A stretch of DNA of 64,000 bases, taken from positions 448,001 through 512,000 of the forward strand of contig CAVUWV010000008.1 of the NCBI GenBank assembly GCA_963745075.1. Reading direction: 5' to 3'. Source of the DNA: Candidatus Hydrogenedentota bacterium (GTDB lineage Bacteria > Hydrogenedentota > Hydrogenedentia > Hydrogenedentales > SLHB01). This document shows positions 6,743 to 24,580 of the stretch, one piece after another. The notes beneath the pieces were generated by a model. The model searched no databases, was not told the DNA's origin, and saw nothing but the letters and a program-made list of their open reading frames with translations. Position 1 is the stretch's first letter. Every line of letters starts with the position of its first letter. Both the position numbers and the translations under genes were made by a program.

Positions 6743-8218
6743 ATGGCGGTTCTGATCGTTGTGAACAAGCCGCAAAACTGGCCGCTCAAGATCCCGGGCG
6801 GCGAGGTCGTCGCGGCGCGAGATTACCTGACCGATCCCACCTACTACCGGCTGCGCGGCGCCCGCGTGTTCAACCTGTGCCGGTCGTACCGGTACCAAAG
6901 CACGGGCTACTACGTGTCGCTCCTGGCGACGGCCCGGGGCCACAAACCTATTCCAAGCATCGAGACGATCCAGGACGTTAAGTCCGCCGCCATCGTGCGG
7001 CTCGCCGCGGACGAACTGGACGAATTGATCCAGAAGAGCCTCAAACCGATCCAGTCCCGCGAGTTCACGCTGAGCATCTATTTCGGCCGCAATCTTGCGA
7101 AGCGGTACGACCGGTTGAGCGCCTACATCTTCAAGCTGTTTCAGTGCCCCCTGATGCGGGCGCGGTTTGTGTATCACGACGAAGACGGTTGGGAGTTGAA
7201 CAATCTCCGGATCATCTCGGCCAACGAGATTCCCGAAGATCACCACCCGTTCGTGGTGGATGTTACGCAGGAGTACTTCCGCCGGTTCCGGGTCTCGGGG
7301 CCGCGCCGGTTCACGCCGCGCTACGATCTGGCGATTCTCTACAACCCGAAAGAGGAGAATCCACCGTCGGATGCGCGCGCGCTGGAGAAGTTCATCAAAG
7401 CGGCGAAGAAGCTCGACATGCGGGCGGAACTGATCGAGCCCGAGGAGTACGGAATTCTGCCCCAGTACGACGGATTGTTCATTCGGGAGACCACCGAGGT
7501 CGACCACCACACGTTCCGATTCTCGCGGCGGGCCTTTGCCGAGGGCATGGTGGTCATCGACGATCCGGAATCGATCGTGCGGTGCGGCAACAAGGTCTAT
7601 CTGGCCGAGTTGCTTGATCTGCACCGCGTGCGCATCCCCAAGACGCTCATCGTGCACAAGGGGAATCAGGAAGAGATTATGCAGAAGATCGGTTTGCCCT
7701 GCATCCTGAAGGAGCCGGACAGTTCCTTTTCGCAAGGCGTGTACAAGGCGGTCAATGAAGCGCAGTTGCACGAGATGATCGAGCAGTTACTGTCCGAATC
7801 GGATCTCATCATCGCGCAAGAGTTTCTGCCCACGCCGTACGATTGGCGCGTAGGGATCCTGGATGGGCAACCGCTGTACGTGTGCCGGTATCACATGGCG
7901 AACCGGCATTGGCAAATCCAGCACAAGGACAGCGGGGGAAAGACGCGCTACGGCAAGGTCGACACGCTGCCCGTCGAGGATGCGCCGCCCCACGTCGTCA
8001 GCACGGCGTTGCGCGCGTCGAAATTGATCGGGGACGGACTGTACGGCGTCGATCTCAAGGAAGCGGGCCGGCGCACCTACGTGATCGAGGTGAACGATAA
8101 CCCCAGCATCGAATCCGGGTTCGAGGATCGCGTGCTCAAAGACGACCTGTATTTGAAGATCATGGAAGTGTTCCTGAAACGCATCGAGCAGCAGAAGGAA
8201 GCCCGGCAACCCAAATGA
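6743..8218 (+). CDS. RimK-family ATP-grasp ligase with N-terminal RLAN-type domain
   Basis: VFNLCRSYRYQSTGYYVSLLA N-domain; LKEPDSSFSQGV, QEFLPTPYDWRVG, YGVDLK and IEVNDNPSI ATP-grasp motifs. Confidence 0.9.
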   Translation: MAVLIVVNKPQNWPLKIPGGEVVAARDYLTDPTYYRLRGARVFNLCRSYRYQSTGYYVSLLATARGHKPIPSIETIQDVKSAAIVRLAADELDELIQKSLKPIQSREFTLSIYFGRNLAKRYDRLSAYIFKLFQCPLMRARFVYHDEDGWELNNLRIISANEIPEDHHPFVVDVTQEYFRRFRVSGPRRFTPRYDLAILYNPKEENPPSDARALEKFIKAAKKLDMRAELIEPEEYGILPQYDGLFIRETTEVDHHTFRFSRRAFAEGMVVIDDPESIVRCGNKVYLAELLDLHRVRIPKTLIVHKGNQEEIMQKIGLPCILKEPDSSFSQGVYKAVNEAQLHEMIEQLLSESDLIIAQEFLPTPYDWRVGILDGQPLYVCRYHMANRHWQIQHKDSGGKTRYGKVDTLPVEDAPPHVVSTALRASKLIGDGLYGVDLKEAGRRTYVIEVNDNPSIESGFEDRVLKDDLYLKIMEVFLKRIEQQKEARQPK

Positions 8219-9449
8219 GCGTCCCGAAGTATCACCTGTTTGACCGTTACGGGGTCGAACTCGAGTATATGATCGTCGATGCGGAGAGCCTGTCGGTTCG
8301 CCCCATCGCCGACGAGGTGCTGCGCCGCGTCGCGGGCGAATACGTCAACGAAGTCGAGCGGGGCCCACTGGCGTGGTCCAACGAACTGGTGTTGCACGTC
8401 ATTGAGTTGAAGACGAATGGGCCGGCGCTCAAGGACTCGACGGACTCGATGGCGTATTCCAGGAACACGTGCGTGTTATCAACGAGATTCTGGCGCCCTT
8501 GGGCGCGCGGCTGATGCCCACGGCGATGCACCCGTGGATGGACCCGCAGGCCGAAACGCGGTTGTGGCCGCACGAGAACAGTCCCATCTACGACGCCTTC
8601 GATCGGATCTTCTCGTGCCAGGGGCACGGCTGGTCGAATCTGCAGAGCGTGCACGTGAATCTGCCTTTCGCCGACGACGAGGAGTTCGGGAAACTGCACG
8701 CGGCGATCCGGTTGCTGATGCCGATCGTGCCGGCGCTCGCGGCCAGTTCGCCGTTTGTCGAGTCGGGCGCGACGGGGCTGTTGGACAACCGGCTCGACGC
8801 GTACCAGACGAACTGCCAGCGGATCCCATCGGTCACGGGATACGTCATTCCGGAACCCGTGTTTCTTTCCGCGGATTACGAGATCCTGATCCTGCAGCGG
8901 ATGTACGAAGACATCGCCCCCCACGATCCCGAGGGCATTCTGCAGGAAGAATGGCTGAACGCGCGCGGGGCCATTGCGCGGTTTGAACGAAACACGCTCG
9001 AGATTCGCGTCATTGACATCCAGGAATGCCCGAAAGCCGATCTCGCGGTCGTGACCGCCATTACTGCCGTGTTGAAAGCGCTGACGGAAGGGCGCTGGTC
9101 GGACGCCTTTCACCAGGAGGCCTGGGAAGTGGATCCCTTGTATGCCATCCTGCTCGCTACGATGCGGTCGGCCGACGCAGCGGTCATTCGGAATCGCGCG
9201 TATCTTCGGGCTTTCGGGCTTGACTCGTCGGCGGCCACGGCCGGCGAACTCTGGCAGCATCTGATCGAATCCGTGGTGCCGGACGGCGATCCGGTGCGAT
9301 CCCCCCTGAAAACGATTCTGAACCAAGGATGCCTCGCGCGGCGAATTCTGTCCGCCGTGGGCGGGGACTCATCGAAGAAACGCATTGCCGAGGTTTACGG
9401 GACCTTGTGCGATTGCCTGGCGGAAGGCCGAATGTTTGAAACCGCGTAG
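8215..9449 (+). CDS. Glutamate-cysteine ligase family 2 (GCS2/YbdK-like) protein, split by a frameshift at ~8430
   Basis: YGVELEYMIVD and WSNELVLHVIELKT in ORF 8215-8514 continue in another frame as GLDGVFQEHVRVINE...LMPTAMHPW, LQSVHVNLP, EIRVIDIQEC. Confidence 0.85.
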
Positions 9450-9575
9450 CGATTGGGGTTGACTCGGCGGCGTAGGTACTCGGTTTGGCAAGGTCGATTA
9501 CGATTACGAATTCGATTAGGATTACGAGTAGTGTGGGCCGGGGCGATGGGGTCGCCTGACGCAGGAGAGGGAATC

Positions 9576-10253
9576 GTGCGAATTCTGGTGGTGGAAGACG
9601 ATGCGAAGATCGCGTCTTTCGTGGCGAAGGGGTTGCGGGAGGCGGGCTACGCGGCGGAGACGGCGGCGGACGGCGAGGAGGGACTCTACCTCGCGGAAGC
9701 GAATAGGTACGACGCCGCGATCGTGGATCTCATGCTGCCGAAACGGGACGGGCTGAGTCTCATCGAAGCGATGCGCGAACGGCAGGTCCGGACGCCGGTG
9801 ATCATTCTGAGCGCGAAACGGTCGGTGGACGACCGGGTGCGCGGGCTGCAAGCGGGCGGGGATGACTACCTCACGAAACCGTTTGCATTCAGCGAACTCC
9901 TGGCGCGGGTGCAGGCGCTGGTACGGCGCACAACGGGAATGGCCGAGCCCACGGTGCTGGAAGTGGCGGACCTGCGCGTGGATCTGTTAAAGCGCGAGGT
10001 GATCCGTGCGGGTGCGTCGATTCAACTTCAACCCAAGGAATTTGCGCTGCTCGAATTTCTCATGCGTCATGCGGGGCGGGTGGTGTCGAAGACGATGATC
10101 ATGGAACACGTGTGGAACTATCACTTCGATCCCGAAACCAACGTCGTTGAGGCGCGCATCTGCCGATTGCGGGACAAGATCGACAAGGGCCGCAAACGAA
10201 CGCTGATCCACACGGTGCGCGGGGTGGGCTACGTCCTGCGCGAGGAACAGTGA
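9576..10253 (+). CDS. OmpR-family response regulator (CusR/CzcR-like)
   Basis: GTG start; RILVVEDD, DLMLP, DDYLTKPF, VWNYHFDPETNVVEARICRLRDKID, IHTVRGVGY. Confidence 0.93.
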   Translation: MRILVVEDDAKIASFVAKGLREAGYAAETAADGEEGLYLAEANRYDAAIVDLMLPKRDGLSLIEAMRERQVRTPVIILSAKRSVDDRVRGLQAGGDDYLTKPFAFSELLARVQALVRRTTGMAEPTVLEVADLRVDLLKREVIRAGASIQLQPKEFALLEFLMRHAGRVVSKTMIMEHVWNYHFDPETNVVEARICRLRDKIDKGRKRTLIHTVRGVGYVLREEQ

Positions 10254-15062: not shown

Positions 15063-15425
15063 TCAGATGTTTCCTTTGGCCTGCTTCACCAGACGGTTGA
15101 TCCAGAGGTCGATGTAGTCGCCGCCGACTTCGGCGATAACATTGATGCCTTGGGTGCGGCCGAAGGTGACGGCGGCGTCGCGGGCGAGTTCACGGGCGCG
15201 GCGGCGTTCGGCGGAGGTGAGCTTGCCGTCTTCGCTGGCTTCTTTGATGGCGCGGACGTAGGTCTGGTAGGTCTGGTCGACGCCGGCTTCGAGGGCGGAT
15301 ATGGCCTGGGCGTAGCGACGCTCTTTGGCCCGCTGGTACCAGTCCCGGGATTTGAAGAAGGTCCAGGCGGCGCCGAAAACGGTGCCGAGAAGGGTGATGC
15401 TGGTATCGGAGACGAGAGATTCCAT
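15063..15425 (-). CDS. Holin-like protein (LL-H-type architecture)
   Basis: Single N-terminal TM, AISALEAGVDQTYQTYVRAIKEASEDGKLT helix, last gene of cluster; AAGGAG RBS. Confidence 0.55.
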   Translation of the reverse strand: MESLVSDTSITLLGTVFGAAWTFFKSRDWYQRAKERRYAQAISALEAGVDQTYQTYVRAIKEASEDGKLTSAERRRARELARDAAVTFGRTQGINVIAEVGGDYIDLWINRLVKQAKGNI

Positions 15426-15449
15426 GAGGGGACTCCTTTGGTTGGTTTC

Positions 15450-15538
15450 ACTGGGAGCGCCATGCACCAGCGCGGCGAGTGCCGGGGAACACCTGCGGTA
15501 AGGACCAAGACGCCACGCTGGTGCATGGCGCTCCCAGT
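15450..15538. repeat. REP family A inverted pair inside the phage-like cluster
   Basis: ACTGGGAGCGCCATGCACCAGCGCGGCG / CGCCACGCTGGTGCATGGCGCTCCCAGT. Confidence 0.85.
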
Positions 15539-15594: not shown

Positions 15595-16116
15595 CTACAA
15601 GAAGGTTCGGGCGTCGATAATGTAGCCGTTGATGGCGTCGTCGGTGTTTTTGATGGCGGCCATGCCAGGGCGCACATAGAGGTGCGCGAGGGCGAGGGCA
15701 TTGCTCGACGGGCTCGGCGCGACGGGCGACGCGGCTTCGGCGCCGGGGACGATGCTGATATCCCAGGTTTCGAGACGGGCTTGCACGAGATCGATGCGGG
15801 GGTTCGTCGTGGGCGGCGTGACGTCGGGCGTGGCGGTCTCGGATTCGAGGCGGTACGGGAAGCGCCCGATAAAGGCGTAGCCAGGTTTCACGTTCACGGA
15901 CAGGCCGGGCACGTCCGCGGCGACAACTTTCAGATCGTCCGTCGCGGCTTTTCGAATGACGCCGTCGCCGCCGCCCCAGGCCTGGCTGAGCAGGAAGTGG
16001 ATGAGTTCGAGGGCGGCCTCGATGCGGTCGTCCCAGGAGTTGAGTTTGGACGAGGCGACGGGGCGTTCCGCAAAGGTCCAGGAGGTCTTGGTGTAGGCTT
16101 TGCCTTTGATCGCCAT
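15595..16116 (-). CDS. Baseplate/tail-fibre-anchor-like protein
   Basis: LKVVAADVPGLSVNVKPGYAFI...RIDLVQARL...LALAHLYV...IIDARTF pattern resembles N-terminal domains of phage tail/receptor-binding proteins; follows Tal-like gene. Confidence 0.6.
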   Translation of the reverse strand: MAIKGKAYTKTSWTFAERPVASSKLNSWDDRIEAALELIHFLLSQAWGGGDGVIRKAATDDLKVVAADVPGLSVNVKPGYAFIGRFPYRLESETATPDVTPPTTNPRIDLVQARLETWDISIVPGAEAASPVAPSPSSNALALAHLYVRPGMAAIKNTDDAINGYIIDARTFL

Positions 16117-16144
16117 TTCGAGAATCCTTTCGGGCTGGGGTTTT

Positions 16145-17899
16145 CTAGTCGAGGTGGTAGCCGGCGTCGAGACCGACGTCGTCCGCATCGAGGCGGAACT
16201 GGAAGAGCTCCGTTTCGCGGGGTTGGCTGCGGACGGTGAAACTGAGCGGATTGGCGACGGAACGCAGCGGGGACGTAAATCGGATACGGGTTTGGAGGTG
16301 CGCGCCGGAGAAACGGTGGACGATTTCCTTCACGCGGGCGACAAGCACGCCGGGAAACCGGTCGCCCCATTCACCGTCGACTTCGCGGTCGAGACGGCGG
16401 AGGACGCCACCGCGAAGTTCGACGAGATCGCCTACGGACACGTCCGCAAACCCGTCGTAGTATTCCACTTCGTCGGAGGGCTCGGGATAGGCGATGTCGT
16501 CGAGGAGGCCTTCGACGAGTTTGTCGGCGTCCTCTTCGAGGGAGATGCCGAAGTGATCGAGCGAGCGGGCGTAGAACCCGAAAGCGTCGATACTCGCGCC
16601 GGCCCAATAGGTCTTTTCCAGTGTGCCGGTGATGGGATTGCCATCGAAGTAAACGGCGTTGATGAGGTCGCTTGAATCGGACCCGAGTGTCACGCCCATG
16701 CGCGTGGGATCGAAGAACCAAACGCGGTCGGGGCGTGTAGCTCGGCGAAAGCTTACGCGTAGCTCCGGATCGATGGACCAGATGAAACCACCCGCGGCAT
16801 AGGCCAGCGCGGTAAGTGCTTCGAGGACGCCGCCGGACGCGTCGAAGTTCACGAGAGAGACGCTCGTGCTGTCGACGGAGTCTGCCTTTGGGCCGGGGTA
16901 TGAGAAGAAATCCTTCAGCTCCATCTCAGGCACAAGGCATTGGCCGTCTTCGTAGAGATAGACTTCGGCGAGTCCCTGTTCAACGAGGGCGGCGTTGAAA
17001 CATTCGCCGCCGCCGAAGACGAGGCCGAGGTAGCGACCGTAGACGTCAACGCGATCGTCGAATGCGCCGCTTGCGTCGCGATGGGGGTTTAGTTCGATGA
17101 AGTCGATACCCTTGGTGTCGATGAGCGACTGCAACGCGGCCGTCGCGGCGTCCGCCTTCAATTTGTAGCCGCTCGCGTTGTATCGGTCGGTGGTCCAGTC
17201 TGCGACTTCTGGGTGGCGCGCGATGGCGTGCGAGTTCTTGTCGGTCTCCTCGGCATCGATGAGCATGAGGCGGACGTCGGGCCAAGGCGCGCCATCCACT
17301 TCGATGCCCGCGATAGTGTCGCCGTCTTTGGCGTAGGCATTGGTGAGGTCGAGTCGATCGCTGCCGACCCATTGGCCCGCGTCGATACCACCGTTTGCGA
17401 GTTCGTTCGTGTCCGTCTTACGTGCGAGGAATTTCTGGTATTCGCGCGCGGCGCCGTCAGGGTAGGCCGTGTGGGCGACGGTGTAGTGAATTGCACCCGG
17501 CGCGCTTTGGACGGCGTCTTTGACGATGGCGTCGATGCTGCGGTTCGTGTAGACGCGGGAAATCGTGGTGTTGCCGTCAAGGGGATCGCGCGCGGCGGCG
17601 AACTCGATGATTTCGTGGAACGTGACGTATTTCTCGAGAATGAGTTTGCGCGTTTCGCTCCATTGCGGTGCGATCTCCGTGACGGGCGCTTCGCAGAAAA
17701 GTTGCCCGTCGATCAACACACGCACCCGATAGCCGTGGCCAAGATCGGTGATACCTTCGGGCAACAGGCCGCGTACCCGATCCGCATCGCCGGGCCAGGT
17801 ACGGATTGCTTCCAGTAACGGCACGTCCGCGTAGCGCCCGATGCGCCGGCCTTCCGTGTCATAGATTTCGATAGCGTAGTTCACGTCAATCACCACCAC
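16145..17899 (-). CDS. Tal/baseplate-hub-like tail protein with inserted staphylococcal nuclease (thermonuclease) domain
   Basis: Follows Dit-like gene; internal KDGDTI..VRLMLIDAEET..DVYGRYLG..FNAALVEQGLAEVY; start may be 17893 or 17884. Confidence 0.75.
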   Translation of the reverse strand: MVVIDVNYAIEIYDTEGRRIGRYADVPLLEAIRTWPGDADRVRGLLPEGITDLGHGYRVRVLIDGQLFCEAPVTEIAPQWSETRKLILEKYVTFHEIIEFAAARDPLDGNTTISRVYTNRSIDAIVKDAVQSAPGAIHYTVAHTAYPDGAAREYQKFLARKTDTNELANGGIDAGQWVGSDRLDLTNAYAKDGDTIAGIEVDGAPWPDVRLMLIDAEETDKNSHAIARHPEVADWTTDRYNASGYKLKADAATAALQSLIDTKGIDFIELNPHRDASGAFDDRVDVYGRYLGLVFGGGECFNAALVEQGLAEVYLYEDGQCLVPEMELKDFFSYPGPKADSVDSTSVSLVNFDASGGVLEALTALAYAAGGFIWSIDPELRVSFRRATRPDRVWFFDPTRMGVTLGSDSSDLINAVYFDGNPITGTLEKTYWAGASIDAFGFYARSLDHFGISLEEDADKLVEGLLDDIAYPEPSDEVEYYDGFADVSVGDLVELRGGVLRRLDREVDGEWGDRFPGVLVARVKEIVHRFSGAHLQTRIRFTSPLRSVANPLSFTVRSQPRETELFQFRLDADDVGLDAGYHLD

Positions 17900-18576
17900 C
17901 GGTCGTGGACCGACACGACCGCTTCAGCGTCGTGGGAGCTGGCAGGATCGTCGGTGTAGGTTAGCGTCGTCCCTTCCGGTGCGATCTCGGGGAAAAGACC
18001 GGTCGTGTAGGGCGTCACGTCGACGCCGTCGAGGGTGACGCGGGAATTCGGCCCGTCAAAGATCAGCACGGACGCGGAGGACACAACGCCATTGTAAAGG
18101 ATGCTCCAGATACCATCAGAAATGGACGGATTGATGAGATTGTCGTTTGCGGTGATTGTGATTGCCGGTACGGAGGTGTAGTTACCGCCGGCGGATACGA
18201 CAAGGGTCGCGCCGGAGGCGTTGATGGGCCAGTTCTCGCTCGTGGGATCGACGGACCGCTCGTAAGGATCGCGGGCGTGGAGTTTCAATGTGAAGTTGCC
18301 GACGCGGGCGTCGTTCGCGATCTCGCGTTTGAACTCCGTGCGGCGGACGTAGAGTTCGCGGTCCGTGCGAATGGAGAGCGCGGCGGTGTAATCCTCCGAG
18401 GACACCGCGTCGAGAATGGCGTCGAGTTTGGTTTCGATAGCGGCGGCGGTGGACTCGCCCACGATGAGTCCGGCGATCTCGATGACGCGCTCGCGGCGGC
18501 CGCCGACTTCCTGGTGCGTCTCACGGACCGTGGTGTGGGCGGGATCGAAGGTGTGGTTTCCCAGCGTAATGGCCAC
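17890..18576 (-). CDS. Distal-tail (Dit)-like protein
   Basis: FTLKLHARDPY, GNYTSVPAITIT, LINPSI, GLFPEIAPEG and C-terminal DRWW resemble siphophage Dit; GTG start with GGAGG RBS. Confidence 0.6.
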   Translation of the reverse strand: MAITLGNHTFDPAHTTVRETHQEVGGRRERVIEIAGLIVGESTAAAIETKLDAILDAVSSEDYTAALSIRTDRELYVRRTEFKREIANDARVGNFTLKLHARDPYERSVDPTSENWPINASGATLVVSAGGNYTSVPAITITANDNLINPSISDGIWSILYNGVVSSASVLIFDGPNSRVTLDGVDVTPYTTGLFPEIAPEGTTLTYTDDPASSHDAEAVVSVHDRWW

Positions 18577-18579
18577 GGG

Positions 18580-18996
18580 TTAGTCCTCCCCGAGGATGGG
18601 GGTCGAACCGGTCGCGTCGGCGGGGATGCGGGCAGGGGCATCGCGGAGGTACGGTTCGAGGACGTACCACGCCTGCTTTTCCGTGAGGGCCGCGACGCCG
18701 GTCAGTGCGCGGAAGCGGTTGCCATCCTCGACGCGTTGGCCGCCGATAGCGACGTTTTTCTGGGCGAAGGCGTCGTGGGCCGCAAGGGACCGGAAGAGGT
18801 ACGCACCCGCGAGCAGAGTTTCGCCGGAGACGAGACCGGGGTCGGGGGATTCGGTGTCGACGTCGGGATCGATCTGGCGGAGGATGTTGCGGTGCGCGTC
18901 GTCGATGGCGGCGACGACGAGGTCCTGGGGGACGGCGACGGTGTCGTTGAGCTGGAATTTGAGGCGGACATCGGCTTCGGTGGTGAAGTTGGGCAT
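18580..18996 (-). CDS. Head-tail connector/adaptor-like protein
   Basis: 138 aa helical protein directly after the capsid gene, FTTEADVR N-terminus; GGAGG RBS. Confidence 0.6.
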   Translation of the reverse strand: MPNFTTEADVRLKFQLNDTVAVPQDLVVAAIDDAHRNILRQIDPDVDTESPDPGLVSGETLLAGAYLFRSLAAHDAFAQKNVAIGGQRVEDGNRFRALTGVAALTEKQAWYVLEPYLRDAPARIPADATGSTPILGED

Positions 18997-19018
18997 GGGC
19001 GGAACCTCCGGGAAGAAG

Positions 19019-19057
19019 AACACGGACCTATACGGACAAGCACGGACGGACACGGAC
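19019..19057 (+). repeat. 10-bp-period (C/T)ACGGAC tandem array
   Basis: Units start at 19021, 19031, 19041, 19051. Confidence 0.85.
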
Positions 19058-19177
19058 AAAGCAACCGAGGCCACCGCACGAGCCGCGCGAACAGCAGCTT
19101 TTGGCGGGGCCTGGGGCCTCTTGTGGCGTAGAGGCCCCAGGCGTGGGCCGGATGGGCGGGTCCGGCGAGGAGATTCG

Positions 19178-20227
19178 TTAGGACCAGTCGCTTTGGACGA
19201 CGACGCGGGCGTCTTTGTAGATCACGGCGAAGTCGGTGACGACCGTGAGGTAGGTGCGGTCCCACTGCTGGTTGATGAGTTTGTCGTTCTCGACGAGCAG
19301 GTCCTGTTCGGTGAGTTTCTGGACCGTGTATCCGGCGTCGAGGATAGTCAGTTTATCCGTGGGCTGATCGACCATGGGAACGAGACGCACGCCGAGTGGA
19401 GTGGGCAGGTTGCCGGTCTTCGCGAAGTCGAAGAGGACGGCATCCTTGAGTTCGGTGAGTCCCAGGATGGTTTGCGCCAGCGCCGAGTTTGCCAGCATGT
19501 GGGTGGGCGTGAAGTACTTGTCCAGCGTCAGGGTCATGAACCCTTTGACGATGTCCGCGTAGGTCCACGTGTCGGCGGTGGCGGTGTTCACCGTGGGCGC
19601 CGCCGTGCCGCTGCCAGACGAATCGCCGCTGACAAGGACCGTGGCCAGGCGCGCATCGAGATTGCGACCGAGGCGTTCGCCGATGCGTTGCAAGTGGACG
19701 CGGAGCATGTCGACGGACATGCGGCGGATGACTTCGTAGGACGCGACCACGCCGCGGCCTTTCTTGTCGAGGCGGACGATGCGGTCGCCGTAGGTGATCT
19801 CCGATTCAGGGATCGCGGCGCCTTCGGCGACGGTGCGCAGTTCCTCTTCGGCGGACGCTTCGTCGACGTAGGGCACATCGTAGGCCGTGCTCGATACGGG
19901 TTCGTCGCGGATGATGAGTTCGGGGTAGACCGGCTTGCGCTTGAGACCGGAAACGACGGCCTCCCGCACGATGTCGGGAAAGAGCCATTTCGCGTTGGGG
20001 TCGCTCTGGAAGAAGCGGTCGACGGTAATGCGGTGTACGTCGACGCCGAATTCCTGGGCGCAGTAGTCGGTAAGGGTGGTGCCGAGGGCGCGAAAGTACT
20101 GCCCGTGGGTCAGGCCGAGGGCGCCGAGGGTGTCGTACAAGTCGTGGCCGCGCGTCTGGCGGAGCCGGTCGGGCTCCTGGCTCAGGAACGCGAGGCGTTC
20201 TTTGACGTTGTCGTCGCGGTAGGGCAT
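19178..20227 (-). CDS. Major capsid protein (HK97 fold)
   Basis: 349 aa; LFPDIVREAV, VAEGAAIPESEI, LDKKGRGVVASYEVIRRMSVD, LVENDKLINQQWD; position in head operon. Confidence 0.88.
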   Translation of the reverse strand: MPYRDDNVKERLAFLSQEPDRLRQTRGHDLYDTLGALGLTHGQYFRALGTTLTDYCAQEFGVDVHRITVDRFFQSDPNAKWLFPDIVREAVVSGLKRKPVYPELIIRDEPVSSTAYDVPYVDEASAEEELRTVAEGAAIPESEITYGDRIVRLDKKGRGVVASYEVIRRMSVDMLRVHLQRIGERLGRNLDARLATVLVSGDSSGSGTAAPTVNTATADTWTYADIVKGFMTLTLDKYFTPTHMLANSALAQTILGLTELKDAVLFDFAKTGNLPTPLGVRLVPMVDQPTDKLTILDAGYTVQKLTEQDLLVENDKLINQQWDRTYLTVVTDFAVIYKDARVVVQSDWS

Positions 20228-20336: not shown

Positions 20337-20717
20337 TTAGAGCAGAACGTGAACCTTGCTTGCTCCGCTGTCGACTTTGAGGTTGCGGCCGACGCCGTTG
20401 CCGGAGGCGGGGGCTTTGACGGTGCCGTCGGTGGCGGAGGCGAGAATGCCGGCCTCGCCGTCGACGGTGGGCGCGGAGCCCGTGTAGGTGAAGATGCAAA
20501 TGCCACGGACCTTGATGGGAATTGCGACGCCGTTGTCGTCGGCGTCCGCCAGGGCTTGGCCGAAGACCACGTCTTCGTCGTCGGTGGCATTGTTCACTTC
20601 ATAGGCGCCGGTGAGCTTGACGGCGTCGCCCGCGGCGATGTCGATGGTGCCGCTGGCGGGGGTTTTGCAGGTGATGACGAGTTCGGTGACCGAACCGCCT
20701 ACGTCTCCGTATGCCAT
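20337..20717 (-). CDS. Capsid decoration/cement protein (DUF2190-like)
   Basis: 126 aa beta-rich, IAAGDAVKLTG..FGQALAD..IKVRG; immediately upstream of the capsid gene. Confidence 0.65.
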   Translation of the reverse strand: MAYGDVGGSVTELVITCKTPASGTIDIAAGDAVKLTGAYEVNNATDDEDVVFGQALADADDNGVAIPIKVRGICIFTYTGSAPTVDGEAGILASATDGTVKAPASGNGVGRNLKVDSGASKVHVLL

Positions 20718-20960: not shown

Positions 20961-21656
20961 TTACGCCGGGTCGCGGAGGATCGTCATGGCGCGATTTTGG
21001 TCTCGCGTGGTCTGTGTCAGCGGCTCCGGTCTGGATGTGGGGCTCGGGGGATATTTGTTGTCGAACCGGATCTCGTAGGCGCGGAGGTGGACATGGATCT
21101 CGTCGAGGGAGAGTTGGGCGAGGGTCCGGCGCCAGAGCGTGTCGTCGAAGGACGGGCCGTCGAGTTCGCGGCCGAGCCCGCAGAAACGTTCGATGGCGCG
21201 GGTGCGGGCGGTTGCGCCGTCGGTGATGAGGCGAGCGGCGTCGTGTTCGCGCGCGCCGGCTTCGTCCAGGGCGTGGCGGATGTCCCGGACGGCGGCGGGG
21301 GGCAGGCCGTCGACGCGGCGTGCGCGGATGACGCGGGATTCGCCGTTGCTGTGGAGGACAAGGGCGCGCTCGTCTTCGGTGGATTCAAGCCAGTGGTAGG
21401 TGCCTGCTTCGAGGCAAATGGCGTCGCCGGGCTGGTTGAGCCAGCGGAGATCGTGGGGCGCTTTTTCGGTCGCCCAGGGCTTGCCGTCGAGAGCGGTGGC
21501 GTCGATGCGCCAGCCGGTGAGGCAATCGCCGAATTCGAGGCGCAGATCGAGGTGGGCGCCGATGGCGTCGCGGTGGCGGTGGATGACGTAGCGGCCGTCT
21601 GGGGTGGTTGGGCGCAACGTGGAATCGGGGGTTTCGGTGGTGAGGGTCCAGTACAT
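20961..21656 (-). CDS. LigD-type 3'-phosphoesterase domain fused to a helical scaffold-like C-terminus
   Basis: RYVIHRHRDAIGAHLDLRLE..LTGWRI..KAPHDLRW..EAGTY resembles PE-domain FVxQxH..HxDxRLE..W..H..GTY; AAAGGA RBS before ATG 21656. Confidence 0.65.
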   Translation of the reverse strand: MYWTLTTETPDSTLRPTTPDGRYVIHRHRDAIGAHLDLRLEFGDCLTGWRIDATALDGKPWATEKAPHDLRWLNQPGDAICLEAGTYHWLESTEDERALVLHSNGESRVIRARRVDGLPPAAVRDIRHALDEAGAREHDAARLITDGATARTRAIERFCGLGRELDGPSFDDTLWRRTLAQLSLDEIHVHLRAYEIRFDNKYPPSPTSRPEPLTQTTRDQNRAMTILRDPA

Positions 21657-21690
21657 TGAGGGGGTCCTTTTTTGGGTGGGCGGCGGCAGA

Positions 21691-21729
21691 AACACGGACT
21701 TACACGGACAGCCACGGACGGGCACGGAC
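21691..21729 (+). repeat. 10-bp-period CACGGAC tandem array
   Basis: Units at 21693, 21703, 21713, 21723. Confidence 0.85.
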
Positions 21730-21739
21730 CAATGCGGCT

Positions 21740-21952
21740 TTACGCGTGAAGCAGCTGCTGGCCGAGGGAAATGACCACCGCGACGAGGTTGGCGACAAGG
21801 AGGAGGACGCCTCGTGCGAGCGTGGTTTCGAGGTCTTGGACCCGCGCTTTCAGTTCCTTGATGTCTTCGGCGAGGTTGTTGACCTGAATCTCGTAGACGA
21901 TGCCGTATGGGCAGCGTTCCGTGTCGCAGGGGGCGGTTGCGTTGCTATTCAT
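21740..21952 (-). CDS. Small coiled-coil plus C-terminal TM protein (70 aa)
   Basis: LAEDIKELKARVQDLETTL coiled coil then GVLLLVANLVAVVISLG; start overlaps the protease stop. Confidence 0.6.
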   Translation of the reverse strand: MNSNATAPCDTERCPYGIVYEIQVNNLAEDIKELKARVQDLETTLARGVLLLVANLVAVVISLGQQLLHA

Positions 21953-22644
21953 GGGACCACCATTTGCGGGGGCAAAGTTCGATGGGTTCGTGGTAGGCGT
22001 CGCGGGCGACTTTGAGAGCTTGGTCGAGGGGGAGCGTGCGTTTGGCGCGTTCGGCTGCGACGAAGCCGGTGCCCTGCGAACCGGAGGAGACGACGGAGCC
22101 TTCAATAACTTCGAGGACGTTGCGCATGATGTAGTGGCATTGGTGATCTCCGTAGGTCTTGCCGGGGACGTGGTCGCAAGTGCGGAGGTCTTTTGCGCAG
22201 ATCGAGCATTCGGGTGTTTCGAAGGAAAAGCCGATGGAGGTCTCGCGATACACGCCGCCCTCGATGTTCAGGATGAAGTCGGCGTTGTCCTGGGTGCGGA
22301 GCACGTAGAACGTCGGGCCGCACGGCGACGCGCGCGCCGTCGTGATGGAGCTGGGATCGGAAGAAAGTGCCGCGCGGCAACGAACCGCGCAGATCGTGGC
22401 GCTCCATCAGCGGACGGCCTGGGGTCATGGCGCTGATCGTTTCGAGTTCGTCGTCGGGGAAGCGGCTGTGGTGCCGGTCGATCTGGTTGTGGCAGAGGTC
22501 GAGGGTGAAGACCGCGAACTCGTGCGGTTCGAGGGGGCGCAGGGCGAAGCGGTTGACCTCAGCGGCGCTGCTGTCGTCATCGGCGCGGGCGCGGACGGCG
22601 ATGAGGGCGCCTTCGCGGCGGAATACAAAGGGATCGAGATCCAT
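21945..22644 (-). CDS. Prohead maturation protease-like protein with Cys/His motif, split by one extra base at ~22309
   Basis: LCHNQIDRHHSRF..MERHD..VRPDV / YVLRTQDNADFILNIEGGVYRETSIGF..CSIC..CDH..CHY..EGSVVSSGSQ; removing one base (GACGTTCTAC to GACGTCTAC on the minus strand) joins both ORFs. Confidence 0.7.
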
Positions 22645-23064: not shown

Positions 23065-24324
23065 CTATCCGATGCCGAGGGTTTTGGCGGCTTCTTCGTG
23101 GGTGAGGAAACCGTTTTCGCGGAGTTGGACGGCGTTGGCGATCTCGCGCTGGCGGGCGGTGGCTTCTTTGAGCACGTCGACGGTGCGGTTGGCGCGCACA
23201 TGGACGCGGGCCTCGGCGTAACCCCACATGAGCGCGAGTTCGAAGTTGTAGAGCCGTTCGAGGATGCGTTTGACGCTGCGGTTGACGGCCTCAACGTGGC
23301 GGTTGATGATTTCGAACTGGGCGGTGCCGTAGGTTTCGGTGGTGCCGTAGTTGCGGCCGAGGAGGATCGGCATGAGGTGCATGCCGGTGATCACCTGTTC
23401 CTCGATGGCCTTGTGGTTGTCGTAAAAGATCTGCGCGTGTTGGTCGCCGCGAATGAGATTGACGCGCACGTTGTCGAAGGTGACGAAATTCTGATCCGCT
23501 TCGAGTCCGGACAAGCGATCCCGCAGCAGATCGAAGTTGCCCTGGATGCGTTCTTCATAGGCCTCGGCGGATTCGCCGCGGGCGCGTTCGTCGGCGGTGT
23601 ATTGGACGTGGAGTTTGGACCAGCCGGCGTTGTGGGTGGCTTTGGCCATATCTTCGAGGAGGCGCTGCTGGATCTTCACGACGAAGGGGATAGACCGCAG
23701 CATGGAGCGGCCGTAGGGATTGGTGCCGTCGCGATCGAGACCGACGTAGATGAACCGTTCGGGCGGCAAGGGGATGGCCTCGCCGTCGAGGATCTGGTAG
23801 GGCCGGAGAAGCCCGTCCTCACGGCGGAAGCGAACGGTCCAGACGTCGACGGGGAGGACGTCGAAGATGGATTCGCGGCTCTGAGAAAGCACGATCTCGA
23901 CCGCGGCGGCACCGTAGGTGAAGAGCGAGGTGTAAAACACATCGAGGAGACCGTCCATGCCGCGGTCGCCGGAATTCACGCGCCTGTCGAGTTCGTGGAG
24001 GAGGCGTTGCGCGCGGCGTTTGGCGGCGTCGGACGACGGGTTGAGGATCTCGATGTCGTAGCCGGTCTGGCAGAGGCGTTTCCAGGTCCAGACGGCGTCG
24101 GAGATGTCGGGGATGGCGTCGCGCAGGAAGCGGTAGACCTGGAGCATGCCGAAGGGCGTATCGTTGGGGAGGGCGACGAACTCGCGGGGAATGCCCTGAA
24201 AGGCGCGCTGGTCTTCGGCGAGGGACGCGGGGAACAGGGCGCCGCCGCGCTCGCGGGTGGTGAAGGTTTCGGCGCGGGGCGCGGGCTTTGGGGGGCGGCG
24301 GAGGCGTTGGAACCAGTGGAGCAT
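23065..24324 (-). CDS. Phage portal protein
   Basis: About 420 aa; YRFLRDAIPDISDAV, YGAAAVEIV, NPYGRSMLRSIPF, ILLGRNYGTTET, GFLTHEEAAKTLG; first gene of head operon. Confidence 0.8.
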   Translation of the reverse strand: MLHWFQRLRRPPKPAPRAETFTTRERGGALFPASLAEDQRAFQGIPREFVALPNDTPFGMLQVYRFLRDAIPDISDAVWTWKRLCQTGYDIEILNPSSDAAKRRAQRLLHELDRRVNSGDRGMDGLLDVFYTSLFTYGAAAVEIVLSQSRESIFDVLPVDVWTVRFRREDGLLRPYQILDGEAIPLPPERFIYVGLDRDGTNPYGRSMLRSIPFVVKIQQRLLEDMAKATHNAGWSKLHVQYTADERARGESAEAYEERIQGNFDLLRDRLSGLEADQNFVTFDNVRVNLIRGDQHAQIFYDNHKAIEEQVITGMHLMPILLGRNYGTTETYGTAQFEIINRHVEAVNRSVKRILERLYNFELALMWGYAEARVHVRANRTVDVLKEATARQREIANAVQLRENGFLTHEEAAKTLGIG

Positions 24325-24580
24325 ATCGGGGTGATCCTCAGGTGTTGGTTTCATTGGTTAGGCACGGGGCGTTGCATGGAGAAGGCTGGAGACCGGAGTC
24401 CGGAGGCTGGAAGGGACAGAGGCGCAGCCAGGACATAGGTAACAGACTCGGACTGACACGGACGACCGAGACGGCCGCATGCTGGTGCTAGTGCTTGGGT
24501 AGGTGATGGGGTCGAAAAGATTTGGGAAATGGCTCATAATTAGAGGATTCCTTTGGGATATGACCGTGGAGGGCTGGATA

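Follow-up and report, generated by a model that had tools for sequence, protein, structure and literature searches.

A candidate LigD-type phosphoesterase fused to a scaffold-like helical module in a gene transfer agent-like gene cluster of Hydrogenedentota

A stretch of 64,000 nucleotides from a Candidatus Hydrogenedentota bacterium (assembly GCA_963745075.1, contig CAVUWV010000008.1, positions 448,001 to 512,000; hereafter the window, whose own numbering is used throughout) carries a 9.3-kb cluster of head and tail-tip genes on the minus strand, from 24354 down to 15063. One gene of this cluster encodes a protein of 231 amino acids (aa) that is best explained as a two-module protein, with a LigD-type 3'-phosphoesterase (PE) module at residues 1 to 118 and a helical module at residues 119 to 231; we refer to it as the PE-scaffold protein. 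The cluster looks like a domesticated system for particles resembling gene transfer agents (GTAs), and we put the chances that the PE enters the head of such a particle as cargo at about even. The gene and its two parts are as follows.

20961..21656, minus strand: PE-scaffold fusion gene, 231 aa (P0001), defined by its open reading frame (ORF) and translation; stop codon included
21303..21599, minus strand: LigD-type 3'-phosphoesterase barrel, residues 20 to 118, from family profile, fold and a census of six residues
20964..21302, minus strand: helical scaffold-like C-terminal module, residues 119 to 231, from AlphaFold2 helices, invariant columns and gene fusions

Results

Residues 20 to 118 belong to the LigD phosphoesterase superfamily

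The coding part of the PE-scaffold gene without its stop codon spans 20964-21656 on the minus strand. The longest ORF, 20961-21725, opens with GTG at 21725; translation probably begins at a conserved ATG (21656), for a product of 231 aa. A preliminary description of this DNA had proposed a LigD-type PE domain at 21315-21593, a span that corresponds to residues 22 to 114, and the peptides that it quoted (YVIHRH, RDAIGAHLDLRLE, LTGWRI, KAPHDLRW and EAGTY) are all found in the translation. A search for homologues returned 304 at an E-value of 0.001 or below; among the 120 of these that were listed, lengths ran from about 220 to 263 aa, and those with a named source came mostly from metagenome-assembled genomes of Hydrogenedentota. 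A family profile and alignment (A1) were built from 40 homologues. PHROGs held no match for the protein, its C-terminal half included, and the BFVD set of viral structures gave 0 matches at E<=0.001. A search of sequencing runs listed no RNA run as a match; three DNA runs from one study matched with small shares, 0.07 to 0.10.

Searches with the single sequence were marginal. The Pfam profile LigD_N (PF13298), by which the preliminary description had proposed to verify the domain, missed its threshold, scoring 13.5 bits against a gathering score of 31.1 (E 0.084). The same scan gave Cupin_2 at E 0.042, and phmmer against PDB sequences gave 5dmp at E 0.31 and 3p4h at E 0.39. Therefore, assignment of the domain to the PE superfamily rests on profile and fold evidence. 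Against PDB sequences, the 40-homologue profile produced six matches at E<=1, the best five of which were all PE structures (3p43, E 1.4e-6; 3p4h, 2.6e-5; 5dmp, 0.0034; 2lj6, 0.0098; 3n9b, 0.01), with alignments spanning profile positions 19-108. Against 1.84 billion representative proteins it gave 164 matches at E<=0.001. About 55 of these (E<=1e-10) were the PE-scaffold family itself, and the others were mostly stand-alone proteins of ~120 aa or domains in larger proteins, matched over positions 19-120. When 18 of the weak matches were scanned with Pfam, LigD_N was found in every one and exceeded its cut-off in 17.

An AlphaFold2 model of the PE-scaffold protein, built from A1, had a mean predicted local distance difference test (pLDDT) score of 90.8 and contained the eight-stranded beta barrel of the PE fold. 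The top seven Foldseek matches in the PDB were all PE structures (E 1.1e-5 to 4.7e-4). In VIA-align, the model superposed on CkoPE (3p4h) with a Z score of 12.0 and a root mean square deviation (rmsd) of 2.0 Å over 96 residues, at 25% identity. The other PE entries followed (MbaPE 3p43, Z 11.9; PaePE, 9.9 for 3n9d and 9.8; 5dmp, 9.2; 2lj6, 8.6), whereas the next fold, a CYTH-like barrel, reached a Z of 5.3. In a separate scan of 48,161 chains, two chains reached Z>=8, and both were PEs. The proposal of a LigD-type PE domain is thus borne out by the family profile (E 1.4e-6) and the fold match, and these data confirm that residues 20-118 belong to the LigD PE superfamily, as a divergent branch below the Pfam threshold.

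LigD_N occurs in odd fusions elsewhere. Among proteins P0244, P0190, P0209 and P0199, it is joined to a C39 peptidase, to a 2-phosphosulpholactate phosphatase, to a SelB-type winged helix and, within a protein of 2924 aa, to 2'-5' RNA ligase-like and PrimPol domains. P0174 (4384 aa) matched profile positions 94-161 in nine stretches (E 5e-10) and has no meaningful Pfam domain; repeats or low sequence complexity probably account for this match. In three Hydrogenedentota genomes (G114, G096 and G059; genome, genus, family and locus codes here are our own), long frames with weak similarity to the PE part are probably LigD.

The catalytic residues of the PE domain are conserved across the phylum

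The 2lj6 chain carries Pseudomonas numbering, hence residues could be mapped directly onto the Pseudomonas aeruginosa enzyme. A HMMER alignment paired H28 with H42, H35 with H48, D37 with D50, R39 with R52, H68 with H84 and W72 with Y88, in agreement with the preliminary assignment of H28, H35, D37, R39 and H68 and of a tryptophan in the place of the tyrosine. H28, H35 and D37 occupy metal ligand positions, R39 and H68 phosphate ligand positions, and W72 the tyrosine position. PMC3082917 describes PE enzymes as holding Mn2+ by two histidines and one aspartate, and phosphate by one arginine and one histidine, with a water-bridged tyrosine contact. The same source reports that these enzymes remove 3'-phosphates and 3'-ribonucleotides and that, in MbaPE, alanine at each of the first five residues abolishes activity, whereas Y82A keeps part of the phosphodiesterase activity. 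This last result suggests that, among the six residues, the tyrosine is the one least strictly required.

All six positions are invariant in the 40 aligned sequences. We extended the census to 128 loci with a tblastn match, which yielded 93 distinct sequences covering residues 20-80. The full H-H-D-R-H-W pattern was present in 91 of them, and per residue the counts were 91 (H28), 91 (H35), 92 (D37), 92 (R39), 92 (H68) and 92 (W72). The conservation of the His and Asp residues on which the preliminary description had relied therefore held in the homologues. Elsewhere in the domain, identity across the phylum has fallen to 38-57%.

The C-terminal half is a helical module found both with and without the PE domain

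In the AlphaFold2 model, the C-terminal half forms helices at residues 120-133, 137-169, 172-180 and 184-201 and, after a Pro-rich stretch (KYPPSPTSRPEPL), a last helix at 218-228; pLDDT is mostly above 87 up to residue 200. A helical C-terminal half with a Pro-rich segment, as the preliminary description had it, is thus seen in both model and sequence. Two motifs, CGLGRELDG and RFD.KYPP.PVSRPE, are invariant in this half across the 40-sequence alignment.

The gene lies between a homologue of prohead proteases and the genes for a 126-aa virion protein and the major capsid protein. This is the scaffold slot that had been claimed for it, and that part of the claim stands; a 70-aa gene that separates the protease homologue from the PE-scaffold gene had been overlooked. 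In a search of the phylum, genomes G003 to G006 (genus g32) and G076 (genus g61) matched positions ~102-232 only, in frames of 354-476 aa. In G004, G006 and G076, the C-terminal half (from residue ~120-140 to the end) is fused in frame behind the protease homologue, and at these loci neither the N-terminal PE part nor the 70-aa gene had a match. At locus L069, the translation runs from the protease domain directly into '...DDGLEARRRAVERFCGLGRELDG...'. The PE-bearing form is found in sister genera of both (G007 in the family of g32; G075, G077 and G078 in that of g61) and in the two most distant genomes, G001 and G002. Because of this distribution, the PE-less forms look like two independent deletions of the PE domain, one in g32 and one in g61.

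A comparable arrangement exists in Bacillus phage vB_BcM_CUBc25, whose capsid protein was the closest match among annotated phages (about 26% identity) and whose genes run in the order TerL, portal/MuF, a 403-aa protein, a 129-aa protein and capsid. The 403-aa protein matches phrog_16951, the family of the protease homologue, over residues 23-232 only, and its remaining ~170-residue C-terminal extension lies in the scaffold place. An hhalign comparison of A1 residues 139-214 with residues 318-384 of this protein gave E 0.0048 at a probability of 7%. Prediction of a complex between the capsid protein (A3) and A1 residues 118-231 scored 0.00, a value with no bearing either way. The protease fusions and the extended CUBc25 protein support the C-terminal half as a separable helical module in what appears from gene order to be the scaffold slot, and a role in scaffolding or capsid targeting is the best interpretation of it.

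In G008 and G043, a match to the C-terminal half only was found, in short frames.

The surrounding cluster encodes head and tail-tip proteins

The other genes of the cluster are listed in the order of transcription.

23065..24354, minus strand: portal protein; Pfam Portal_Mu E 6.7e-10, phrog_3753 E 4e-47
21945..22644, minus strand: prohead-protease homologue, frame broken in this genome; phrog_16951 and AlphaFold2 fold match
21740..21952, minus strand: conserved 70-aa gene (Cys pair, coiled coil, hydrophobic C-terminus); tblastn matches in most loci
20337..20717, minus strand: decoration-like 126-aa virion protein, encoded immediately before the capsid protein; matches phrog_4588 'virion structural protein' at E 1.4e-8
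19178..20227, minus strand: major capsid protein, 349 aa; Pfam Phage_capsid_4 E 4.2e-15, phrog_3922 E 3.6e-52
18580..19074, minus strand: 164-aa conserved gene in head-tail connector position; order conserved across loci
17890..18576, minus strand: distal tail protein (Dit)-like gene; phrog_33 Dit E 3.3e-12
16145..17899, minus strand: 584-aa tail-tip protein with SNase-type nuclease domain; Pfam SNase 27.8 bits against a cut-off of 21
15595..16188, minus strand: 197-aa virion structural protein; phrog_9534 'head protein' E 1.2e-7, order conserved
15063..15467, minus strand: 134-aa gene that closes the cluster, its product hydrophobic in a segment at the N-terminus; order conserved

The slot of the 126-aa gene is filled in CUBc25 by the 129-aa gene. 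The 164-aa and 134-aa genes had no match in Pfam or PHROGs, the 70-aa gene had none above noise in either, and the Dit-like gene also matched Pfam SPP1_Dit under the cut-off (E 0.0013). Among the genes of the cluster and its flanks we recognised no integrase, repressor, replication or lysis gene, and within the cluster no tail tube or tape-measure gene. The flanks are chromosomal genes (a melibiase-like protein, PEMT, a two-component system, a DUF5107-TPR protein and sulfatases), and the GC content at third codon positions of the cluster is the same as that of its neighbours. No flanking genes common to the whole phylum were found; they are shared among close relatives only.

The gene upstream of the 70-aa gene had no Pfam match, and its family profile gave 0 matches at E<=1 against PDB sequences. 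An intact relative in L069 scored E 1.4e-34 against phrog_16951. The AlphaFold2 model of another relative, from L001, was mediocre (pLDDT 62); its best match among the 48,161 chains was the T4 gp21 protease (Z 7.5, rmsd 3.3 Å, 127 residues), followed by the varicella-zoster (Z 4.8) and cytomegalovirus (Z 4.3) proteases, with unrelated folds from Z 3.7. The top three Foldseek matches were all T4 gp21, though weak (E 0.076-0.38). Mainly because of the Z of 7.5 to T4 gp21, we label this gene, with moderate confidence, a putative prohead-protease homologue. In the window, one extra base near 22309-22310, inside the stretch 22300-22315 (GACGTTCTACG against GACG-TGTACG in the three closest relatives) splits it into two frames, whereas both halves are in the same frame in 52 of the 52 other loci in which both were found. 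The extra base may be a mistake of the assembly or else a genuine mutation that inactivates the gene.

The 70-aa gene is missing from L069 to L071, where the C-terminal half is fused to the protease. Many loci (e.g., L009, L013, L020, L023, L027 and L031) carry a variable insert of ~2 kb between the protease and 70-aa genes; the window does not. In L015, the insert at 7696-9775 encodes a 550-aa protein, which is hydrophobic in a segment at the N-terminus and has repeats rich in Gly and Thr, together with a 137-aa ORF.

The SNase domain occupies approximately residues 189-323 of the 584-aa tail-tip protein, which aligns to staphylococcal nuclease chains over both halves of the active site. The residues that we take to be catalytic are widely retained: D21 in 36 of 39 loci, R35 in 37 of 37, D40 in 37 of 37, E43 in 34 of 37 and R87 in 36 of 36. 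The PE-less genomes G004 and G006 retain the SNase protein with all of its catalytic residues.

The cluster is phylum-wide, single copy and largely vertically inherited

The PE-scaffold gene was found in 119 of 135 Hydrogenedentota genomes, in 80 of the 86 of high quality (at least 90% complete, at most 5% contaminated) and in 62 of 66 genera. Each of these genomes has one copy, if contig splits and weak additional matches are set aside. When one genome was scanned per species, 68 loci were obtained, nearly all labelled Hydrogenedentota. By tblastn, these have the same genes in the same order and on the same strand wherever matches exist, except that L021 and L045 carry insertions; L039, L044, L058 and L063 had no match to the 584-aa and 197-aa genes. 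In an alignment of 26 capsid proteins, the mean column identity was 81% over 349 columns for the 349-aa protein, and the nearest of 50,697 phage records reached a capsid identity of at most 33%.

A capsid tree was made with 58 rows, 3 of 61 having been dropped for want of a near-full capsid match. It required 12 changes of family label, the minimum for 13 families, against a mean of 36.1 in shuffled labels; none of the 200 shuffles reached so small a number. Families f3, f7, f8 and f11 were each recovered as a single clade. Inheritance is largely vertical, with at least one oddity, concerning f14 and f15. The preliminary description had read the genes as those of a phage; we found instead a phylum-wide, single-copy, vertically inherited cluster whose terminase lies at another locus. 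The setting therefore looks like a domesticated GTA-like particle system with a split locus, not a prophage, and a domesticated cluster changes the likely purpose of the PE enzyme.

The oddity is that the capsids of f14 and f15 (L132 in G001 and L133 in G002, taxonomically the most distant) nest in the f1/f7 clade with SH-like approximate likelihood ratio test support of 95, which may reflect an old transfer within the phylum or an artefact of taxonomy or rooting. In L029 and L043, no match to the 126-aa gene or the capsid gene was found 3' of the PE gene despite 2.8-5.5 kb of DNA there; the region may have been replaced, rearranged or masked.

A divergent terminase gene lies at a separate locus

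The genome of the window (G000, 89.7% complete) had no match to PF03237, PF03354, PF04466, PF17289, PF20441, PF05876, phrog_38 or the large terminase subunit (TerL) of CUBc25, and PF03237 matched in just 27 of the 135 genomes. We next used as query the TerL of L134, a separate element that carries TerL and portal genes (phrog_2, E 2.1e-27). TerL-like genes were then found in 123 of 135 genomes, including G000, and in 83 of the 86 high-quality ones, and the reading that there is no terminase was dropped. Most matches were to a gene of ~490-520 aa with about 36% identity to the query.

In G000, the TerL-like gene lies at C8:332063-333367, on the same contig as the cluster, ~130 kb from it and ~116 kb before the start of the window. 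Pfam did not recognise it; the assignment is based on its 36% identity (E 1e-67) to the phrog_2 TerL and a weak PHROGs match to TerL family phrog_5909 (E 2.4e-4). This copy shares 71% identity with those of three genomes in which the gene is close to the portal: G118 and G034, at a distance of 1.4-2.1 kb, and G084. Its level of conservation is similar to that of the portal itself. These data suggest that in most genomes a divergent TerL, apparently cognate, is encoded at a separate locus, hence the split-locus, GTA-like picture.

Two shorter TerL matches in G000 lie at C24:454960-455991 and C1:372393-373424 (query positions 136-511). The L134 element itself (G117:C24, 1778-5050), with relatives in G110, G006, G083 and G078, has adjacent TerL (phrog_2) and portal (phrog_2739) genes. 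Between genomes of different families, identity of this TerL stays at 90-100%, a hint that the element is a recently mobile phage or island that may be spreading in Hydrogenedentota.

Discussion

The PE module keeps the His-His-Asp manganese site and the Arg/His phosphate clamp. We propose that it most likely still binds Mn2+ and acts on nucleic acid ends, where it would hydrolyse a terminal 3'-phosphate or 3'-ribonucleotide. This predicted binding and catalysis follow from the PE fold and the retained residues. The C-terminal half would co-assemble with the capsid protein inside the procapsid and so place the PE in the head as cargo; we infer this prohead loading from the position of the gene, the protease fusions elsewhere and the extra C-terminal residues of the protease homologue in CUBc25. 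Once in the head, the PE would either work on the DNA packaged there, at its ends, or be carried along with it, leaving 3'-OH ends that could be extended, ligated or recombined. The cluster as a whole would form particles and package DNA.

Several observations weigh against this proposal. As regards the enzyme, the Pfam LigD_N match to the single sequence covers residues 26-53 alone, the active-site tyrosine (PaePE Y88, CkoPE Y55, MbaPE Y82) is replaced by Trp72, and the equivalents of PaePE K66, R76 and E82, which we take to be functional residues, are not retained in the 2lj6 alignment. In G039 (loci L114 and L061, of identical sequence), all six active-site residues are replaced in a gene that is kept at full length, and in L050 both metal-binding histidines are changed to arginine (H28R and H35R). 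Both would, by their residues, be natural catalytically dead variants. With the PE domain deleted in g32 and g61 as well, catalysis appears to be dispensable in some lineages. As regards the C-terminal half, the 48,161 chains gave only generic helical matches (Z<=6.8), PHROGs, the fold scan and hhalign showed no significant similarity to known scaffolds, and the sequence is far more conserved than scaffolds usually are. If the protease frameshift is real, this genome's copy may not assemble normally. The nuclease of terminase leaves 3'-OH ends, so packaged DNA would have no obvious need for a 3'-phosphatase. Finally, both the particles and the presence of the protein in them are predictions from the genes.

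The conservation of the C-terminal half bears on where the enzyme might act. Its invariant motifs, above what is typical of a scaffold, would fit a specific docking interface through which the module tethers the PE to the portal, the protease or the terminase outside the shell, so that DNA ends are processed before or during packaging, or host DNA is acted on within the cell that makes the particles. A conserved terminase exists, and encapsidation is itself a deduction. However, prohead proteases act inside the procapsid, and the C-terminal half is fused to the prohead-protease homologue in two lineages; moreover, the scaffold slot of the related phage CUBc25 likewise falls between the protease and capsid genes. 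We regard action outside the shell as unlikely.

The tail-tip nuclease raises the question of substrate. SNase-type nucleases leave 3'-phosphate ends, which the PE would remove, and the two thus make an attractive functional pair. The most elaborate form of this idea builds on loading into the head and is a cut-and-heal mode of gene transfer, in which the tail-tip SNase makes 3'-phosphates and the scaffold-loaded PE, delivered with the DNA, restores 3'-OH; we consider it improbable. The PE-less genomes G004 and G006 keep the SNase, and the pairing is therefore not obligatory. It is likewise doubtful that the PE is active on other substrates, namely RNA 3'-phosphate or 2',3'-cyclic ends, or SNase-made 3'-phosphates on target or recipient nucleic acid. 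In favour of such substrates, the SNase catalytic residues are kept in 34-37 of 36-39 loci, and the PE chemistry described in PMC3082917 matches the expected nuclease products. However, G004 and G006 have an intact SNase without a PE, and the two enzymes would be at opposite ends of the particle; direct support was not found.

The variants with altered or absent active sites would fit a PE barrel that is mainly structural, serving oligomerisation, spacing or size determination, with its residues binding metal or anion for stability without turnover. The full-length gene of G039 with all six residues replaced, the H28R and H35R changes of L050, the two lineages that do without the domain and the change of Tyr to Trp are all in keeping with such a role. 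Nevertheless, 91 of 93 sequences keep the five ligands and the Trp while the rest of the domain stands at 38-57% identity, and a purely structural barrel would not need the exact catalytic set, so we judge this role somewhat less probable still. It is very improbable that the cluster is simply a prophage or satellite whose scaffold gene happens to be unusual and whose spread is that of a successful mobile element: the cluster genes are all of phage origin and the f14/f15 capsids inside the f1/f7 clade hint at transfer within the phylum, but there is one copy per genome in 119 of 135 genomes, the capsid tree tracks taxonomy, integrase, repressor, replication and recognised lysis genes were not found, the flanks are housekeeping genes common to close relatives only, and the terminase is at a separate locus.

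Our preferred explanation, PE cargo in the head of a GTA-like particle, invites comparison with four kinds of known system. The LigD PEs (PaePE 3n9b, 3n9d and 2lj6; CkoPE 3p4h; MbaPE 3p43; Methanocella PE 5dmp) share with the Hydrogenedentota domain the same barrel (Z 12.0-8.6; rmsd 2.0-3.4 Å over 96-101 residues) and, in an unchanged order along the sequence, the His-His-Asp metal triad and the Arg and His that bind phosphate; its size is that of the minimal archaeal PEs. The Hydrogenedentota protein differs in its Trp for Tyr and its LigD_N score under the threshold. Furthermore, it is fused to scaffold-like helices and is neither joined to ligase or polymerase domains nor stand-alone, it is encoded in a phage-derived particle cluster and not in a nonhomologous end joining (NHEJ) context, and its activity is predicted.

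With phage scaffolds and protease-scaffold proteins (lambda C/Nu3, Mu I/Z, P2 gpO, P22 gp8) it has in common its place between protease and capsid, an elongated C-terminal module made of helices and, in some Hydrogenedentota, fusion to a protease homologue. The module shows no significant likeness to known scaffolds in sequence or fold, is unusually conserved and has an enzyme domain at its N-terminus. In a limited literature search that was not aimed at this point, no enzyme domain at the N-terminus of a described natural scaffold was found; nor did a limited search, which does not exclude its existence, find a paper on the Hydrogenedentota particle cluster or the PE-scaffold fusion.

GTAs (the RcGTA type, BaGTA, VSH-1, Dd1 and VTA) likewise have structural genes without replication or integration genes, vertical inheritance over a large clade and separate loci. 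The Hydrogenedentota cluster belongs to another phylum and has an unrelated head module (Mu-like portal, Phage_capsid_4), an SNase at the tail tip, a PE on the scaffold and no recognised tail tube or tape-measure gene; any DNA transfer by it is putative. In encapsulins, and for the capsid-targeted internal proteins of T4, cargo enters an HK97-fold shell by a short appended targeting module. The Hydrogenedentota system would similarly send an enzyme into an HK97-fold shell, but by a whole scaffold-like domain of ~110 residues. A further difference is that this shell comes with a portal, a protease and a terminase and so presumably contains DNA.

Engineers have used fusions to the P22 scaffold to load enzymes artificially. 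If our explanation is correct, Hydrogenedentota would present a natural case of enzyme delivery into an HK97-type capsid through fusion to a scaffold domain, and the PE superfamily would have its first role outside NHEJ-type repair. If the cut-and-heal idea also held, the device would let incoming DNA be extended, joined or recombined. The natural variants, with the PE present, dead, or deleted and the scaffold-like module fused to the protease, make its function testable by comparison. The cluster as a whole would amount to a GTA-like particle belonging to an entire uncultured phylum, with such unusual parts as a tail-tip nuclease, a split terminase locus and no recognised tail tube.

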